Source of the DNA: Alphaproteobacteria bacterium
GTDB taxonomy: Bacteria; Pseudomonadota; Alphaproteobacteria; SP197
Length of the DNA: 64,000 nucleotides
Assembly (NCBI GenBank): GCA_965228895.1
Contig: OZ245842.1
Location: 1,120,001-1,184,000 of the forward strand
Reading direction: 5' to 3'
Part shown: positions 7,795 to 12,908 of the stretch, piece after piece
How the letters are laid out: every line of letters begins with the position of its first letter
How positions within the stretch are numbered: the first letter of the stretch is position 1
Notes under the pieces: model-generated
Told to the model about the DNA's origin: nothing
Databases searched by the model: none
The model's input: the letters and a program-made list of their open reading frames with translations, nothing else
Translations under genes and position numbers: made by a program

Positions 7795-8241
7795 ATGGCC
7801 AACGCATTCGATCTCAACCTCATTCGTCGATGCCGGCGTGGTGTTGCCGGTCTTTCGATCGGGTTCGCCAGGGCGATCGCCGTATGCGTGGTTCTGCTGG
7901 GCTGGTCGGCGATCGACGGCCGCGCACTTGCCGATGGCTGGAACTCGATTGCTGGCGGTGATGCCACGCTAGGTCACAGACTCGTCGAAGAAAATTGCGC
8001 CAGGTGTCACGGTTCGGACCAGACAGGGCTGCTATCCGGCGGTACGACGCCGTCACAGCAGGATCTGGCTGAAATCGTGACCGATCGCCAGATTCTGGTT
8101 CGCGCCTTCTACTTCGATCGCCATCCCAGCATGCCCCGTTTTTTGTTCGGCGATTACGAGATGAACAACCTTCTCGCATACTTCGCCGAATTGCGGACCG
8201 GCAACGCCCAACAACCTTTCCCGCGTTCGTGGACCCGCTAG
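7795..8241 (+). CDS. Monoheme c-type cytochrome
   Basis: Signal/TM segment, CARCH heme-binding motif, distal HPSMP Met ligand candidate. Confidence 0.8.
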   Translation: MANAFDLNLIRRCRRGVAGLSIGFARAIAVCVVLLGWSAIDGRALADGWNSIAGGDATLGHRLVEENCARCHGSDQTGLLSGGTTPSQQDLAEIVTDRQILVRAFYFDRHPSMPRFLFGDYEMNNLLAYFAELRTGNAQQPFPRSWTR

Positions 8242-8283: not shown

Positions 8284-8312
8284 TTGATGCGTGCTTGGCG
8301 GCAGGTTACCTT
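8284..8312 (+). promoter_or_regulatory. Predicted sigma70-type promoter of repeat protein A
   Basis: TTGATG-N17-TACCTT; same architecture, including GGCAGGT at the end of the spacer, as at 9818-9846. Confidence 0.6.
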
Positions 8313-8359
8313 GTGGTCGATGCCAGGGGATCAAACGCAGCCTTTCCAGGAGATTGATC

Positions 8360-9676
8360 ATGCCGAAGAAAGCGATCGACCGACTTCGACGTGAGGGTGA
8401 CGTGAAAGGCACGAAGCCTGGCAAAGAAGCGACCGGCGGCATTTTGCCAAGCGACCGGCGTGGACTGCTGTCGCGGGTCGGCGCTGGCCTGGCCCTCGCC
8501 CTGGGAGGTGCGCTCGGCAAGGTGATGTCATCGACGCCGGCCCATGCGCAAAACTACACCGGCATTACCGATAACGACTCTGGCGCAGCCCAGGACTCGC
8601 CGGGTTATGGCTCAGGTGGCGGCGATGGCGATGGCTACACCGGCATCACCGACAACGACTCAGGCGCAGCCCAGGATTCGCCGGGTTACGGCTCAGGCGG
8701 CGGCAATGGCTATACCGGCCTGTCGGACAACGATGCTGGCGCCAATCAGGATGCGGCAGGCTATGGCTCGGGCGGCGGCGATGGCTATACCGGCCTATCG
8801 GACAACGACGCTGGCGCCAACCAGGATGCGGCAGGCTATGGCTCGGGCGGCGGCGATGGCTATACCGGCTTGTCCGACAATGACGCTGGCGCCAACCAGG
8901 ATGCGGCAGGCTATGGCTCGGGCGGCGGCGATGGCTATACCGGCCTGTCGGACAACGACGCTGGCGCCAATCAGGATGCGGCCGGCTATGGCTCTGGAAG
9001 CGGCGACGGCTATACCGGTTTCACCGACAATGATCAGGGCACGTACCAGGACCAGGCTGGCTACGGCTCCGGCGGTGGTGACGGTTATACGGGCGTGACC
9101 GACAGCGATCAGGGAACCAATCAAGATCAGGCAGGTTATGGTTCCGGCGGTGACGGCTATACGGGTCTGACCGACAGCGACCAAGGCACGTACCAGGATC
9201 AGGCGGGCTATGGTACTGGCGGCGGTAGTGGTGATGGCTACACGGGCATCACCGACAATGATTCCGGTGCTGCCCAGGACGCACCGAACTACGGCACAGG
9301 CGGCGACGGCTATACGGGCGTAACCGACAGCGACCAAGGCACGTACCAGGATCAGGCGGGCTATGGTACTGGCGGCGGTAGTGGTGATGGCTACACGGGC
9401 ATCACCGACAGCGACCAGGGCACCTACCAAGACCAGGCGGGTTACGGCAGCGGCGGCGACGGCTATACGGGCATCACCGACAGCGATCAGGGCGCCAGCC
9501 AGGATGCCGAGGGATATGGCTCGGGCGGCGGCGGCGCCTACACCGGCATCACCGACAACGACAAGGGCGCGACGCAAGATGCCGAGGGTTATGGCCGTGG
9601 CGATGGCTACACGGGTATCACCGATAACGACAAGGGCGCTAGCCAGGACGCCGAAGGTTACGGCACCGGCGGCTAG
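8360..9676 (+). CDS. Twin-arginine-leader acidic Gly/Asp/Tyr repeat protein A (438 aa, 15 repeats)
   Basis: RBS AGGAG then ATG 8360; DRRGLL Tat-like motif, hydrophobic h-region and AHA cleavage site, followed by 15 copies of YTGx[TS]D[NS]DxGxxQDxx[GN]YG with Gly-rich linkers. Confidence 0.9.
   Translation: MPKKAIDRLRREGDVKGTKPGKEATGGILPSDRRGLLSRVGAGLALALGGALGKVMSSTPAHAQNYTGITDNDSGAAQDSPGYGSGGGDGDGYTGITDNDSGAAQDSPGYGSGGGNGYTGLSDNDAGANQDAAGYGSGGGDGYTGLSDNDAGANQDAAGYGSGGGDGYTGLSDNDAGANQDAAGYGSGGGDGYTGLSDNDAGANQDAAGYGSGSGDGYTGFTDNDQGTYQDQAGYGSGGGDGYTGVTDSDQGTNQDQAGYGSGGDGYTGLTDSDQGTYQDQAGYGTGGGSGDGYTGITDNDSGAAQDAPNYGTGGDGYTGVTDSDQGTYQDQAGYGTGGGSGDGYTGITDSDQGTYQDQAGYGSGGDGYTGITDSDQGASQDAEGYGSGGGGAYTGITDNDKGATQDAEGYGRGDGYTGITDNDKGASQDAEGYGTGG
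8555..9673 (+). repeat. Coding tandem repeat, 15 units of 22-27 codons
   Basis: Units 3-6 are near-identical 75-bp copies; 9170-9257 is identical to 9323-9410 (88 bp, 153-bp offset). Confidence 0.95.
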
Positions 9677-9817
9677 GTCACAGGGGGTCGATCGCCTGGT
9701 TGATCTGTCGTGAGCGGCGTCTTGATTGCGCCCCGCCTAACCAATCGATCCACACGAATGCGTTGCAGCTAGCCCTTTTGCGTGCCGAACACCCCATCTC
9801 GGTGCCGTTCTAGCCGA

Positions 9818-9846
9818 TTGATGAGACCGGTTTGGCAGGTTAGCGT
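9818..9846 (+). promoter_or_regulatory. Predicted sigma70-type promoter of repeat protein B
   Basis: TTGATG-N17-TAGCGT; duplicate of the 8284-8312 architecture. Confidence 0.6.
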
Positions 9847-9892
9847 ATGGGTGGGCACTGGGAGCATGGTGCCCGGTCTTTAGGGGGTATCG

Positions 9893-10765
9893 ATGTCCAA
9901 GCCATCAAATGGCCGGAAAAACGGTCGCGTTGTTGAGACGACAGAGAAATCAAAGCAAGGCACGAACGCCTTGGCGCCGAGCGACCGACGCGGCCTGTTG
10001 TCGCGGGTTGGTGCTGGCCTGGCCGTAGCGCTCGGTGGGTCGCTGACAAAGTTGGTGGCGCCATCATCCGCGTATGCTCAGGAATATACGGGCCTGAACG
10101 ACAACGACTCCGGCAGCGGTCAAGATGCCGCGGGCTACGGCACCGGCTACACCGGTGTCACCGACAACGACCAGGGTGCCTACCAAGACGCCGAAGGTTA
10201 CGGCGGCAGCAGCGGCGATGGTTATACCGGGTTGAGCGACAACGACGCGGGCAACAATCAGGACGCACAGGGCTACGGCACCGGCTACACCGGTGTCACC
10301 GACAACGATCAGGGCAGCTATCAGGATGCCGAGGGTTATGGCGGTAGTAGCGGCGATGGTTATACCGGGTTGAGCGACAACGATTCCGGCAACAACCAGG
10401 ACGCACAGGGCTACGGCACCGGCTACACCGGCATCACCGACAACGATCAGGGCAGCTATCAGGATGCCGAGGGTTATGGCGGTAGTAGCGGCGATGGCTA
10501 TACCGGGTTGAGCGACAACGATTCCGGCAACAACCAGGACGCACAGGGCTACGGCACCGGCTACACCGGCATCACCGACAACGATCAGGGCAGCTATCAA
10601 GATGGCGAGGGGTACGGCACTGGTGGCAGTGGCGGTTATACCGGCCTGAACGACAATGATTCCGGCAACAACCAAGACCAAGCGGGCTACGGCACCGGCT
10701 ACACGGGCATAAGCGACAACGACAAAGGCACCTACCAGGATGCCGAAGGTTATGGCGGCGGCTGA
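9893..10765 (+). CDS. Twin-arginine-leader acidic repeat protein B (290 aa, 10 repeats), paralog of A
   Basis: RBS AGGGGG; shares PSDRRGLLSRVGAGLA[LV]ALGG with A; AYA cleavage site; 10 repeats of the same core. Confidence 0.9.
   Translation: MSKPSNGRKNGRVVETTEKSKQGTNALAPSDRRGLLSRVGAGLAVALGGSLTKLVAPSSAYAQEYTGLNDNDSGSGQDAAGYGTGYTGVTDNDQGAYQDAEGYGGSSGDGYTGLSDNDAGNNQDAQGYGTGYTGVTDNDQGSYQDAEGYGGSSGDGYTGLSDNDSGNNQDAQGYGTGYTGITDNDQGSYQDAEGYGGSSGDGYTGLSDNDSGNNQDAQGYGTGYTGITDNDQGSYQDGEGYGTGGSGGYTGLNDNDSGNNQDQAGYGTGYTGISDNDKGTYQDAEGYGGG
10085..10762 (+). repeat. Coding tandem repeat, 10 units alternating 21 and 25 aa (138-bp super-unit)
   Basis: Alternating ...GYGTG and ...GYGGSSGDG linkers visible in the translation; the DNA repeats at a 138-bp period. 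Confidence 0.95.
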
Positions 10766-10807
10766 TCGTCTGATTGGCGTTTGATAAAACGAAACATTCT
10801 CTGCGAG

Positions 10808-10832
10808 GTGGCACCGGTAAGGTGCCACGTTT
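10808..10832 (+). terminator. Stem-loop between repeat protein B and the JmjC gene (weak terminator or mRNA stabiliser)
   Basis: GTGGCACC-GGTAA-GGTGCCAC followed by GTTT; the U-tract is short. Confidence 0.45.
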
Positions 10833-10856
10833 GACCGGTGTGTTAGGCCGTCTGCA

Positions 10857-12044
10857 ATGACCGACACGTTACATTTCTCGCGACCTGCGGATGCCGTCGA
10901 CTACCTGCTGGCGCCCTGTCCGATCGCGCGGTTTACCGACGAGGTCTATGAGCGTACGCCGTTGATCATCCGGCGCGAGGAGCCGAGCCGCTATCGGGAT
11001 TTGCTGTCGATCGAAGCGATTGACCGCCTGGTCGCTGAGGTCGAACTGCGTGGCGATACGCTTCAGATCGTGCGCGCGAAGCCAAGAATCGCGCCACGCG
11101 ACTACACGCTCTCCAACGGCATCGTCGATCCCATCCGGTTGGCGGACTTCTACGCGGACGGCGCGACGATCATCCTGAACCAGTTGCAGCGCCTGCACGC
11201 CCCGCTGGACCGTCTGACACGGGCGTTGGAGGCTGCGTTCAGCGCGCAGTTCCAGACCAATGTCTATCTGACGCCGGCGACCGGGCAGGGCTTCCCGGTG
11301 CATTTCGACAACCACGATGTCATCGTCCTGCAGGTCGAAGGCAGCAAGGCATGGCGTCTCTATGAAGCGCCGATCCACCTGGTCTATCGCGGCGAGCGAT
11401 TCGAACCCGGCGCCTATGATCCCGGCGAAACGACCGACAGTTTCACGCTCAACGCCGGCGACGCGCTCTATATTCCGCGCGGCCAAATGCACGAGGCGGC
11501 CGGTAACGAGCATGGCCCCTCGCTTCACATCACCGTCGGCATCATCACCAAGACGTGGACCGACCTGATCCTGGAAGCGGTTGCCGGCGTCGCGCTCGAC
11601 GATCCGGACTTCCGGCGCAGTCTGCCGCTCGGGTTCGCTCATGCCAGTGCCGATCTCGACGCGATGCGCACGACATTCGACGACTTGATGGCCAGACTAG
11701 CTGACAACGCCACGATGGACCCCGCGCTGGCGGTTCTGCGCGACGACTTTGTCCGCCGACGCCGGCCCCATATCGACGGCGCGGTTCTGGCGCCACGTCC
11801 GCCGGTCGAGGCGACCACACGGCTCGTCGCACGGCCCAGCCTGGTGTGGCGCTTGGCTCAGGATGAGAAGGGGTTGGAGCTGTTGGCCAACGGGCGCACG
11901 CTGCGATTTCCCGCTGAAGACCGCGACGCGTTGGAATTGGCGCTGTCCGGTGAGCCGTTTACGGCCGGCGACCTACCAAACAAGCGAGCGCTTGAGCTCG
12001 CCCGTCACCTCGTCAACAGTGTTCTCGTGACGCCAGTGGCCTAA
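10857..12044 (+). CDS. JmjC/Cupin_4 2-oxoglutarate-Fe(II) oxygenase (YcfD/RoxA/NO66-like)
   Basis: NVYLTP...GFPVHFDNHDVIVLQVEGSKAWRLY...GDALYIPRGQMHEA gives the HxD...H Fe triad and the 2OG-binding Lys; helical region plus C-terminal winged-helix-like domain as in ROX enzymes. Confidence 0.92.
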   Translation: MTDTLHFSRPADAVDYLLAPCPIARFTDEVYERTPLIIRREEPSRYRDLLSIEAIDRLVAEVELRGDTLQIVRAKPRIAPRDYTLSNGIVDPIRLADFYADGATIILNQLQRLHAPLDRLTRALEAAFSAQFQTNVYLTPATGQGFPVHFDNHDVIVLQVEGSKAWRLYEAPIHLVYRGERFEPGAYDPGETTDSFTLNAGDALYIPRGQMHEAAGNEHGPSLHITVGIITKTWTDLILEAVAGVALDDPDFRRSLPLGFAHASADLDAMRTTFDDLMARLADNATMDPALAVLRDDFVRRRRPHIDGAVLAPRPPVEATTRLVARPSLVWRLAQDEKGLELLANGRTLRFPAEDRDALELALSGEPFTAGDLPNKRALELARHLVNSVLVTPVA

Positions 12045-12047
12045 ACC

Positions 12048-12908
12048 TTACCGGCCGGCGGTACCCGTGCCGCCGGACCATGTGGCGTCGCCGCCTTCGA
12101 AGTAGTAGGCGCTTTGCTCGTCGCTGATGCGTTGCCAGGCGGCGATCGCTTCGGGCGTCAGATCCCCCTGAGGCCGGGGCATCGGTTGAAAGTGGCCGTC
12201 TTTGTCGTGGCCGCGGACCACGGTAGCGTAGTCGCGGTCGCCCTTTGTCTGGCGCGCGCTGGGCGCGAGGAAACGCATGGCAAGACCGATGCGTCGCTGG
12301 TCGGACCGGTTGGGTTCGGAGGCATGCAGCGTCAGGCCGTGATGGATCGACATCTCGCCTGCCTTTAGCGGGCCGGCGATCGCTTGTGACTCATCAATAC
12401 CGTCGCGCACAGTCTGTCCACGGGTCAGCAGGTTGGTGTCGGCATGGGTGTCGACGTGTTCCAACAGGCCGCGTTGGTGGGACCCAGGCAGAAATCGCAT
12501 GCAACCCATTTCGCCGGTCGCCGGTGACAGCGCCAGCCAGGCGGTGAAGCTCTCCAAAGGCTCGATGCCCATGTAGCGGAGATCCTGGTGCCAGCTTATG
12601 TAGCCCGGTGTGTTCGGCTCTTTGATGATGAGGTCGCTGTCCCACAGCAGAATGTCGGGACCAATCAACGACTCCATGACGTCGACGACACGGGCGTCGT
12701 GGACCAGGTCATCGACTGGCGTGAAGACAACGTGCGCGGCAGTCCGGCGGAACTCAGCGAGCGGCAGGTCGTCGGGGGCATCCCGTTCGATCGTTTCCAG
12801 GCGTTCGCGCATGCGCGCCGCGTCGGTTTCATCCAACACGTCGACAGGCGCCAGAAATCCGTCACGCGCGAAGCTTTCGGTTTGTTCGGTTGAGAGGGAT
12901 CCCGTCAT
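12048..12908 (-). CDS. PhyH-family 2OG-Fe(II) dioxygenase
   Basis: IKEP...SWHQD...WLALS...CMRFLPGSH...HASEPNRSDQRRIG motifs. Confidence 0.92.
   Translation of the reverse strand: MTGSLSTEQTESFARDGFLAPVDVLDETDAARMRERLETIERDAPDDLPLAEFRRTAAHVVFTPVDDLVHDARVVDVMESLIGPDILLWDSDLIIKEPNTPGYISWHQDLRYMGIEPLESFTAWLALSPATGEMGCMRFLPGSHQRGLLEHVDTHADTNLLTRGQTVRDGIDESQAIAGPLKAGEMSIHHGLTLHASEPNRSDQRRIGLAMRFLAPSARQTKGDRDYATVVRGHDKDGHFQPMPRPQGDLTPEAIAAWQRISDEQSAYYFEGGDATWSGGTGTAGR

Follow-up and report, generated by a model that had tools for sequence, protein, structure and literature searches.

Beta-hydroxyaspartate occurs in siderophores and in EGF domains, and the Asp and Asn residues of Ca-binding EGF domains are beta-hydroxylated by AspH, which belongs to a different family of 2-oxoglutarate (2OG) oxygenases from the JmjC enzymes considered here. 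Hydroxylation by JmjC enzymes is reported for Lys, His, Asn and Asp (PMC11575548; here and below, statements given with a PMC number follow the available parts of those papers), and one of these enzymes, FIH, acts on Asn, Asp and His of ankyrin repeats (PMC9189129). Among the ROX-type JmjC enzymes, MINA53 holds its substrate histidine with Tyr167 and Ser257 (PMC9994133), and YcfD is treated as the prokaryotic ROX counterpart (PMC6006756). SmaO, an Fe/2OG Asp hydroxylase, acts on a peptide of the class that is made on the ribosome and modified after translation (RiPP) (PMC12186529). We analysed a stretch of 64,000 nucleotides of alphaproteobacterial DNA (the window; positions 1,120,001 to 1,184,000 of contig OZ245842.1, assembly GCA_965228895.1), in which two genes for repeat proteins with twin-arginine leaders, A and B, are followed by a gene for a JmjC oxygenase. 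An earlier note on this DNA had pointed to the three genes as a candidate new system. Our reading, to which we give a probability of about 0.55, is that they form a dedicated enzyme-substrate module, in which the repeat proteins would be modified before export by the twin-arginine translocation (Tat) pathway and would end up as envelope proteins. The genes are as follows (window coordinates).

8360-9676, + strand: gene A, repeat protein of 438 aa, a leader of ~63 aa followed by 15 units
9893-10765, + strand: gene B, repeat protein of 290 aa, a leader of ~62 aa followed by 10 units
10857-12044, + strand: jmjC gene, predicted ROX-type JmjC Fe(II)/2OG oxygenase of 395 aa

Repeat proteins A and B and their relatives

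A count by regular expression found the pattern YTG..D.D.G..QD...YG 15 times in A and 10 times in B, and ten of the 19 positions (Y1, T2, G3, D6, D8, G10, Q13, D14, Y18 and G19) are the same in all 25 units, so that the earlier count of units and of fixed residues was reproduced. The units are joined by Gly-rich linkers of 2-8 residues. At the DNA level, Tandem Repeats Finder detected arrays with periods of 63-153 nt (e.g. 75, 81 and 138) and 63-90% matches. A composition count returned no C, H, M or W in the mature parts of A (373 aa) and B (226 aa), as the earlier note had stated.

Neither A nor B had a match in Pfam, NCBIfam or PDB; when PDB was queried with B or the family profile, two chance-level rows (E 0.43 and 0.83) were all that came up, and ESM Atlas returned nothing but unnamed hypothetical clusters. 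The AlphaFold2 model of B, built from an 84-row alignment, showed a predicted local distance difference test score (pLDDT) of 44.5 and no secondary structure. Such a disordered model is consistent with an extended substrate, and perhaps with folding that depends on metal, and proves neither.

The first protein search identified 10 relatives of the repeat protein, two of them fused to a peptidoglycan-binding domain (PF01471), and a profile search expanded the family to 522 or more clusters (90% identity), almost all of which are unnamed or annotated as 'hypothetical protein'; one UniRef member is named 'Tat pathway signal protein'. The consensus unit of the wider family, [ST]-G-[VI]-T-D-S-D-[ST]-G-x-[YN]-A-D-P-x-G-x-G-R-G, is found behind a leader with a pair of arginines (RR). 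Members also occur in Myxococcota, namely in Sandaracinus amylolyticus and a Sandaracinaceae metagenome-assembled genome (MAG) (P0235, P0251). One of these two is labelled as an RNA-binding RRM protein at source, presumably from its Gly/Arg content.

Scanning one genome per species (185,579 species), we found 303 stretches that encode relatives of the repeat protein. With the same unit recurring in these 303 stretches of other genomes, the repeat of A and B is, judged by sequence, far beyond chance. Locus counts given below refer to the best 80 of the 303 stretches, picked solely by similarity to B. These 80 loci include 71 from Alphaproteobacteria and 2 from Gammaproteobacteria; 34 belong to Maricaulales (Maricaulaceae) and 14 to Sphingomonadales, and the remainder are distributed over Hyphomonadales, Caulobacterales, Rhodospirillales and more, with at least nine named orders represented. 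Maricaulis maris DSM 4734 (L032) and Woodsholea maritima (L024) are cultured carriers. Within the family of the source organism, repeat proteins were detected in none of 30 genomes outside its own genus, and three genomes of this family in a class-wide sample (described below) had neither the repeat nor a close JmjC gene. This patchiness is a hint that the genes were gained horizontally or lost more than once. The repeat has no model in Pfam or NCBIfam, and we found no account of the system in the mainly open-access literature (main texts); the earlier note, too, had not recognised a described family.

Conserved pairing of repeat genes and jmjC

Using tblastn, we found a JmjC match in 67 of the 80 repeat loci. 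In 66 of them the JmjC gene lies downstream of the repeat genes on the same strand, with a gap of -14 to +250 bp (788 bp in one case). One, two, three or four repeat genes stand in tandem in 38, 24, 15 and 3 loci, respectively. The linked JmjC orthologues are 37-46% identical to the JmjC protein of the window, and the orthologue from a locus of the same genus (L012) is 92% identical. One locus (L025) has a weak JmjC-like gene upstream, not downstream. In Allosphingosinicella, repeat genes are either convergent with the JmjC gene (L122, L126) or unlinked to it (L049, L051, L077).

To cover the class evenly, we searched a sample of 401 alphaproteobacterial genomes with the JmjC protein and with the repeat profile. 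The JmjC matches were bimodal: nine genomes, the source genome included, had full-length matches at E <= 1e-52, and the rest showed E values of 4e-33 or weaker, confined to the JmjC core. The earlier note had asked whether homologues of the repeat protein co-occur with this JmjC subfamily. They do: beside the 66 downstream genes in the 80 loci, the repeat profile was positive in 7 of the 401 genomes, and all seven (7/7) were among the nine with a close JmjC, against 0/392 of the others. In six of the eight other close-JmjC genomes, ORFs (open reading frames) with D.D.G...D repeats lie beside the gene. In a seventh, an ORF upstream of the close JmjC gene (L097:925-1461, + strand) encodes an RR leader and, behind it, a unit shortened to 12 residues, [ST]-D-[ST]-D-G-D-P-x-G-x-G; its product also carries the N-terminal motif L-T-[ED]-E-[ED]-I, which is common to several other members. 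In the eighth (L099), the contig extends just 596 bp upstream and contains a 58-aa ORF. Around distant JmjC paralogues of the same sample, repeats were found at 0 of 21 loci.

When the 4273 ORFs of the 80 loci were clustered, the repeat genes (80 loci) and the JmjC gene (67 loci) were the only ones to recur as a pair. No protease, exporter or maturation gene was conserved; recognition-element domains were not specifically searched for. Other neighbours recurred on the opposite strand: ruvC-ruvA-ruvB adjoins the module upstream in ~40-48 of the 80 loci and ybgC-tolQ-tolR-tolA-tolB in ~22-31, and the transketolase gene (tkt) is also among the recurrent opposite-strand neighbours. We take the recurrence of ruv, ybgC-tol and tkt as lineage synteny of Maricaulales and their relatives, outside the system. 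A strictosidine-synthase-like gene, located downstream in 20 loci, was set aside as a candidate on the same ground.

That so many loci (34 of 80) come from related Maricaulaceae, in which the other neighbours, ruv and tol, are syntenic too, raises the question of whether the adjacency of repeat and JmjC genes is itself inherited synteny with no functional link. We regard this as scarcely credible, since the pair is kept at loci whose other neighbours are all different, the window included; it is found in Sphingomonadales, Caulobacterales and Rhodospirillales as well as in two orders of Gammaproteobacteria, and distant JmjC paralogues lack nearby repeats (0/21). Comparative genomics established a conserved pairing of the repeat genes with jmjC, mostly in alphaproteobacteria. 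From this pairing, it is highly probable that the repeat genes and jmjC are functionally linked.

The JmjC enzyme

The JmjC protein matched Pfam JmjC_2 with an E value of 1.1e-25 (90 bits; cut-off 22). Its best sequence matches in PDB (phmmer) were MINA53 (E 4e-31), NO66 (E 1e-28) and Bacillus subtilis YxbC (E 2e-12), whereas Escherichia coli YcfD matched the JmjC core only (E 6e-5, 25 bits). Residues H149, D151, H212, H224, K164, N135 and Y137 are invariant in 73 homologues. Alignment with MINA53 assigns H149/D151/H212 as the iron triad and K164 as the 2OG lysine, based on what we take to be the MINA53 ligand residue numbers; the intact HxD...H motif and 2OG lysine claimed earlier are thereby found again. 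The spacing of Tyr167 and Ser257 in MINA53 (PMC9994133) agrees with the same alignment.

The AlphaFold2 model of the JmjC protein (73 homologues) had a pLDDT of 95.9. In Foldseek comparisons it aligned with NO66 at TMq 0.76-0.79 over 442-460 columns, the NO66 chains being 447-461 residues long, and with YcfD at TMq 0.52-0.56; its identity to NO66 and MINA53 in the Foldseek alignments is 23-26%. Because the model superposes on NO66 over its full length, the protein is predicted to have the complete ROX architecture, with a JmjC domain, a helical dimerisation domain and a C-terminal winged helix. Sequence comparison places it as a ROX-type enzyme closest to NO66 and MINA53. No signal peptide was seen in its translation. 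By its residues the enzyme is catalytically intact, and it is predicted to be cytoplasmic and dependent on Fe(II), 2OG and O2.

The Ser of MINA53 and NO66 is replaced in the JmjC protein by Gly228, which is nearly invariant in the clade, while the equivalent of Tyr167 is kept as Y137. The Tyr + Ser pair of histidyl hydroxylases is therefore incomplete, and the mature proteins of the window have no His; we counted the change from Ser to Gly228 toward a target other than His. Compared with the same-genus orthologue in L012, the jmjC gene showed a ratio of nonsynonymous to synonymous substitution rates (dN/dS) of 0.061 at dS 0.74, which indicates strong purifying selection.

The source genome contains a separate YcfD orthologue, which matches E. 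coli YcfD at E 5e-59 and the Rhodothermus enzyme at E 6e-69:

G000:C1 ~2344785-2345978 (L005:970-2163), - strand: YcfD/RoxA-type orthologue, E 5e-59 to YcfD

Because the genome holds this true orthologue, the JmjC protein of the window is, by sequence, an additional paralogue distinct from the housekeeping uL16 hydroxylase. The earlier note had left room for a grouping with the uL16 hydroxylases; the protein does not group with YcfD (E 6e-5, against 4e-31 for MINA53), the true YcfD being encoded elsewhere. A quick maximum likelihood tree (96 sequences, LG+G4, rooted on one very long outgroup) separated 73 repeat-linked JmjC proteins from 23 others, with repeat linkage arising as one state change and the YcfD orthologue on the other side of the split. 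The support for the split by the Shimodaira-Hasegawa-like approximate likelihood ratio test (SH-aLRT) was 92.7, below 95, and we treat the tree as supportive, not conclusive. Four long JmjC homologues (P0104, P0118, P0156 and P0123) showed no fusion to repeats.

A functional link may also exist without a substrate relation, if the JmjC enzyme acted on a ribosomal or other cytoplasmic protein and were co-regulated with the repeat genes, or if it served as a chaperone of the Tat leaders. All characterised ROX enzymes act on ribosomal proteins, according to the available text of PMC6006756, and substrate-like peptides can bind ROX enzymes without turnover, according to that of PMC9994133. However, a YcfD orthologue is already present in the genome, the genes are closely paired and overlap or abut in many loci, and a co-occurrence of 7/7 versus 0/392 would be odd for a housekeeping ribosomal enzyme; the invariance of the catalytic residues makes a pure chaperone unlikely. 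We judge this explanation improbable, and consider it likely that the repeat proteins are substrates of the JmjC enzyme. A complex prediction of the JmjC protein with units 1-3 of B (residues 62-131) scored 0.00, which speaks neither for nor against binding.

Unit conservation and the candidate target residue

We extracted 963 near-full units with a hidden Markov model, whose seed was chosen by regular expression and so biases the collection toward the kernel. Numbered from the first Asp, D0, D2 and D8 are conserved in 100% of the units, G4 in 99.4% and G13 in 99.9%; Thr or Ser occupies position -1 in 99%, and Arg position +14 in 91.5%. In the source genus, R+14 is changed to Ser or Thr, A+7 to Gln, and P+9 is missing. 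Across the family, the median content of acidic residues is 13.9% and that of basic ones 11.3%, close to charge neutrality; strong acidity is a local trait of the source genus and not of the family. The earlier description of the proteins as acidic thus holds for those of the window, which are extremely so (A has 61 acidic versus 3 basic residues in the mature 373 aa), but not for the family, whose typical members are near neutral with an Arg in each unit.

Asn is not conserved across the family, and no variant, not even L097 with its 12-residue unit, lacks any of the three Asp of the kernel. We favour Asp because His and Arg are missing from mature B and Lys occurs in it once, Asn is unconserved and the three Asp are invariant. 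By this elimination, one of the Asp residues is our tentative candidate for beta-hydroxylation, at somewhat less than even odds.

The same module might instead perform another chemistry: modification of the Arg in the GxGRG tail, of Thr/Ser at -1 or of Tyr/Asn at +6, a cross-link, or oxidative cleavage. Arg +14 (91.5%) and Thr/Ser -1 (99%) are themselves highly conserved, and YcfD, a bacterial ROX enzyme, is an Arg hydroxylase (PDB). In the available part of PMC9994133, ROX substrate peptides are Gly-rich just before the target, and the GxGRG tail is alike. The Arg of GxGRG in typical members is accordingly a serious alternative target. Against such chemistry, the proteins of the window are nearly free of Arg (one in A, none in B), and the JmjC enzyme of this Arg-poor lineage retains the invariant residues and is under strong purifying selection; moreover, the 12-residue unit of L097 retains just [ST]-D-x-D...D. 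Taken together, the other chemistries appear unlikely, although less so than a link without any substrate relation.

Leaders, export and localisation

The leaders of A and B are laid out as follows, with putative cleavage sites marked by a slash.

8360-8548, + strand: leader of A, with a long basic n-region, twin arginine R33-R34, a hydrophobic core and AHA/Q
9893-10078, + strand: leader of B, with twin arginine R32-R33, a hydrophobic core and AYA/Q

In translation, both contain PSDRRGLLSRVGAGLA[LV]ALGG, followed by AHA/Q in A and AYA/Q in B, so the shared leader core and AxA site described earlier are present in the two proteins. Among the 143 repeat ORFs of the 80 loci, all (143/143) have an RR motif before the first unit; the motif takes the form SRRSFL in 75 and the form seen in the window, DRRGLL, in 3. 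Two Tat-signal models, TIGR02811 and TIGR01409, matched 40 and 16 of 84 members, respectively, the family profile weakly matched the NapA signal peptide, and tatC is present in the source genome. By their RR motif, the Tat models and the presence of tatC, the leaders of the family qualify as predicted Tat signals, those of the window being themselves unmatched by the models.

A lipobox-like site was found in 42 of the 143 repeat ORFs (by a rough regular expression), and a C-terminal peptidoglycan-binding domain (PF01471) is fused to the repeat protein in P0006, P0008, P0175 and P0177. In some members (P0011; L077:1971-2549; L051) the units are bracketed by pairs of Cys, which suggests disulfide-closed loops. 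Because of the RR leaders, lipobox-like sites, PF01471 fusions and Cys pairs, these features point to a protein that is retained in the periplasm or envelope and whose units behave as separate loops. In one further member (P0193), the repeat protein is fused to a SnoaL-like domain (PF12680).

These data also bear on the possibility, raised in the earlier note, of a multicore RiPP, in which the 25 units would be modified and afterwards released by cleavage as short secreted peptides. With its leader ahead of many nearly identical cores on short linkers, the layout resembles such a precursor, and JmjC tailoring enzymes are known, such as CzlI of curacozole (PMC11575548) and BipG of biphenomycin (PMC12707348). 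Nevertheless, no protease, exporter or maturation gene is conserved in the 80 loci, the leader is a general Tat signal in 143/143 ORFs, and the lipobox-like sites (42/143) and PF01471 fusions indicate retention in the envelope. We therefore disfavour the multicore-peptide option and regard it as very improbable.

The proposed pathway and what weighs against it

If the repeat proteins are modified by the JmjC enzyme before export, A and B would start out as cytoplasmic precursors, mostly unfolded and rich in Gly, that carry twin-arginine leaders. In the same compartment, the ROX-type JmjC enzyme, using Fe(II), 2OG and O2, would oxidise one residue in each 19-22-residue unit, and the likeliest reaction would be beta-hydroxylation of one of the three invariant Asp in the [ST]-D-x-D...D kernel. 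Tat would export the modified precursor post-translationally, which would leave the cytoplasmic enzyme time to act, and the leader would then be removed. The product would remain a protein in the periplasm or envelope, and its many hydroxy-Asp/Asp loops would most plausibly bind cations.

Cation binding is proposed because of the invariant Asp/Gly kernel alone, and a role of the repeat proteins in metal binding, drawn by analogy, is possible but doubtful. The broader proposal, that there is a widespread pathway in which an NO66-like JmjC enzyme installs many beta-hydroxyaspartates and Tat exports a siderophore-like or Ca- or other metal-binding protein, is speculative to a similar degree.

Several observations weigh against the proposed pathway. 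Thirteen of the 80 loci have no adjacent JmjC gene, although one of these ends ~110 bp past the repeat gene. In the genomes behind ten of the unlinked loci, we found a JmjC gene elsewhere in nine (E <= 1e-45), and repeat ORFs stood beside the gene at 8 of 10 JmjC loci of such genomes; of the three further unlinked loci, two are, per record, from MAGs whose other locus is linked. The locus counts overstate independence, since 34 of the 80 loci are from Maricaulaceae and only the best 80 of 303 stretches are covered. As to the target, Arg +14, present in 91.5% of the units, could be the usual one, with the source genus as the exception. The leaders of the window (SDRRGLL) match no Tat model. The near-neutral composition of typical members weakens the picture of a polyanion or chelator, and among 84 members no match was obtained to EF-hand/DxDxDG, thrombospondin type 3 or RTX motifs (E <= 0.01). 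Finally, A and B have no Pfam family at E <= 0.1 and no related solved structure.

Organisation of the locus

Other features in and around the three genes are listed below.

7795-8241, + strand: small c-type cytochrome-like ORF, CxxCH (Pfam Cytochrom_C, 22.2 bits versus a cut-off of 21.3)
8284-8308, + strand: TTGATG-N10-GGCAGGTTA motif 5' of A, promoter- or operator-like (alignment)
9818-9842, + strand: second copy of the TTGATG-N10-GGCAGGTTA motif, 5' of B (alignment)
10808-10828, + strand: 8-bp GC-rich hairpin in the spacer between B and jmjC (RNA fold)
12048-12908, - strand: PhyH-family Fe/2OG dioxygenase (Pfam E 3e-31)

The start codon (ATG) of A is preceded by AGGAG. The TTGATG-N10-GGCAGGTTA motif has identical spacing 5' of both A and B, in the window as well as in locus L012 of the same genus, which suggests that each repeat gene has its own promoter or that the two share the site of a common regulator. 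A consensus scan detected neither a sigma-70 promoter in this region nor any terminator between B and jmjC; the sole terminator-like site on the + strand between the genes was at 9706-9719, after gene A. B and jmjC are co-oriented and separated by a spacer of 91 nt, in agreement with the distance given in the earlier note. The fold of this spacer was not significant (z = -1.41) and the T-run of its hairpin is short; a role of the hairpin at 10808-10828 as a partial terminator is speculative.

The PhyH gene is convergent with jmjC and ends 3 bp past its stop codon, and the cytochrome c-like ORF lies 118 bp upstream of A. Together with MscS, they were considered as members of the system and rejected, being common only to the same-genus locus L012; MscS had weak partial matches (24-29% identity) in six further loci besides L012.

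Comparison with known systems

New here would be the class of substrate on which a JmjC protein hydroxylase acts, and the compartment, the chemistry and function being deduced from sequence. If so, A and B would be the first non-ribosomal substrates of a bacterial ROX enzyme, and an exported bacterial protein would for the first time be seen to undergo O2-dependent hydroxylation of its side chains. In the literature reviewed, bacterial JmjC protein hydroxylation is known solely for uL16 (YcfD), and a second bacterial ROX clade, with a substrate that is exported and not ribosomal, would widen this picture. The pathway would also explain why an unfolded protein uses Tat: it would be waiting for the O2-dependent modification in the cytoplasm. 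If the product contains beta-hydroxyaspartate, it would be a polyvalent chelator that is genetically encoded and common among marine oligotrophs (Maricaulis, Erythrobacter, Hyphomonadaceae). The substrate is tractable, with a short unit, many sites per molecule and two genes to co-express.

The closest relatives of the JmjC enzyme are NO66 (RIOX1) and MINA53 (RIOX2), with which it shares the JmjC fold, the iron triad, the 2OG lysine, the three domains and the active-site Tyr (Y137). It differs from them in being bacterial and only 23-26% identical, in having Gly228 in place of the Ser that contacts the substrate His, and in its presumed substrate, an exported His-free repeat protein instead of a ribosomal one. 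YcfD/RoxA, the uL16 arginine hydroxylase, is likewise a bacterial ROX enzyme of the same Pfam family; it is, however, a weak match (E 6e-5), and its true orthologue in this genome is a separate gene on the other side of the tree.

FIH and AspH resemble the proposed system as 2OG oxygenases that beta-hydroxylate Asp or Asn in many copies of a repeated module, but they are eukaryotic and act on folded domains, and FIH is a distant fold match to the JmjC protein (TM 0.37). CzlI, BipG and SmaO are, like the JmjC enzyme, bacterial 2OG oxygenases, and are encoded beside the ribosomal peptide that they hydroxylate (PMC11575548, PMC12707348, PMC12186529). Their clusters include proteases and transporters as well as other enzymes, and the products are small peptides, whereas here the oxygenase alone is conserved and the presumed substrate carries a Tat signal. 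Repeat proteins with Tat leaders play no part in the systems of YcfD, CzlI, BipG or SmaO. Tat redox enzymes with chaperones of the NapD/TorD type share the twin-arginine leader and the order of cytoplasmic maturation followed by export; in those enzymes maturation is the insertion of a cofactor, and here it would be the side-chain oxidation of an unfolded repeat protein.

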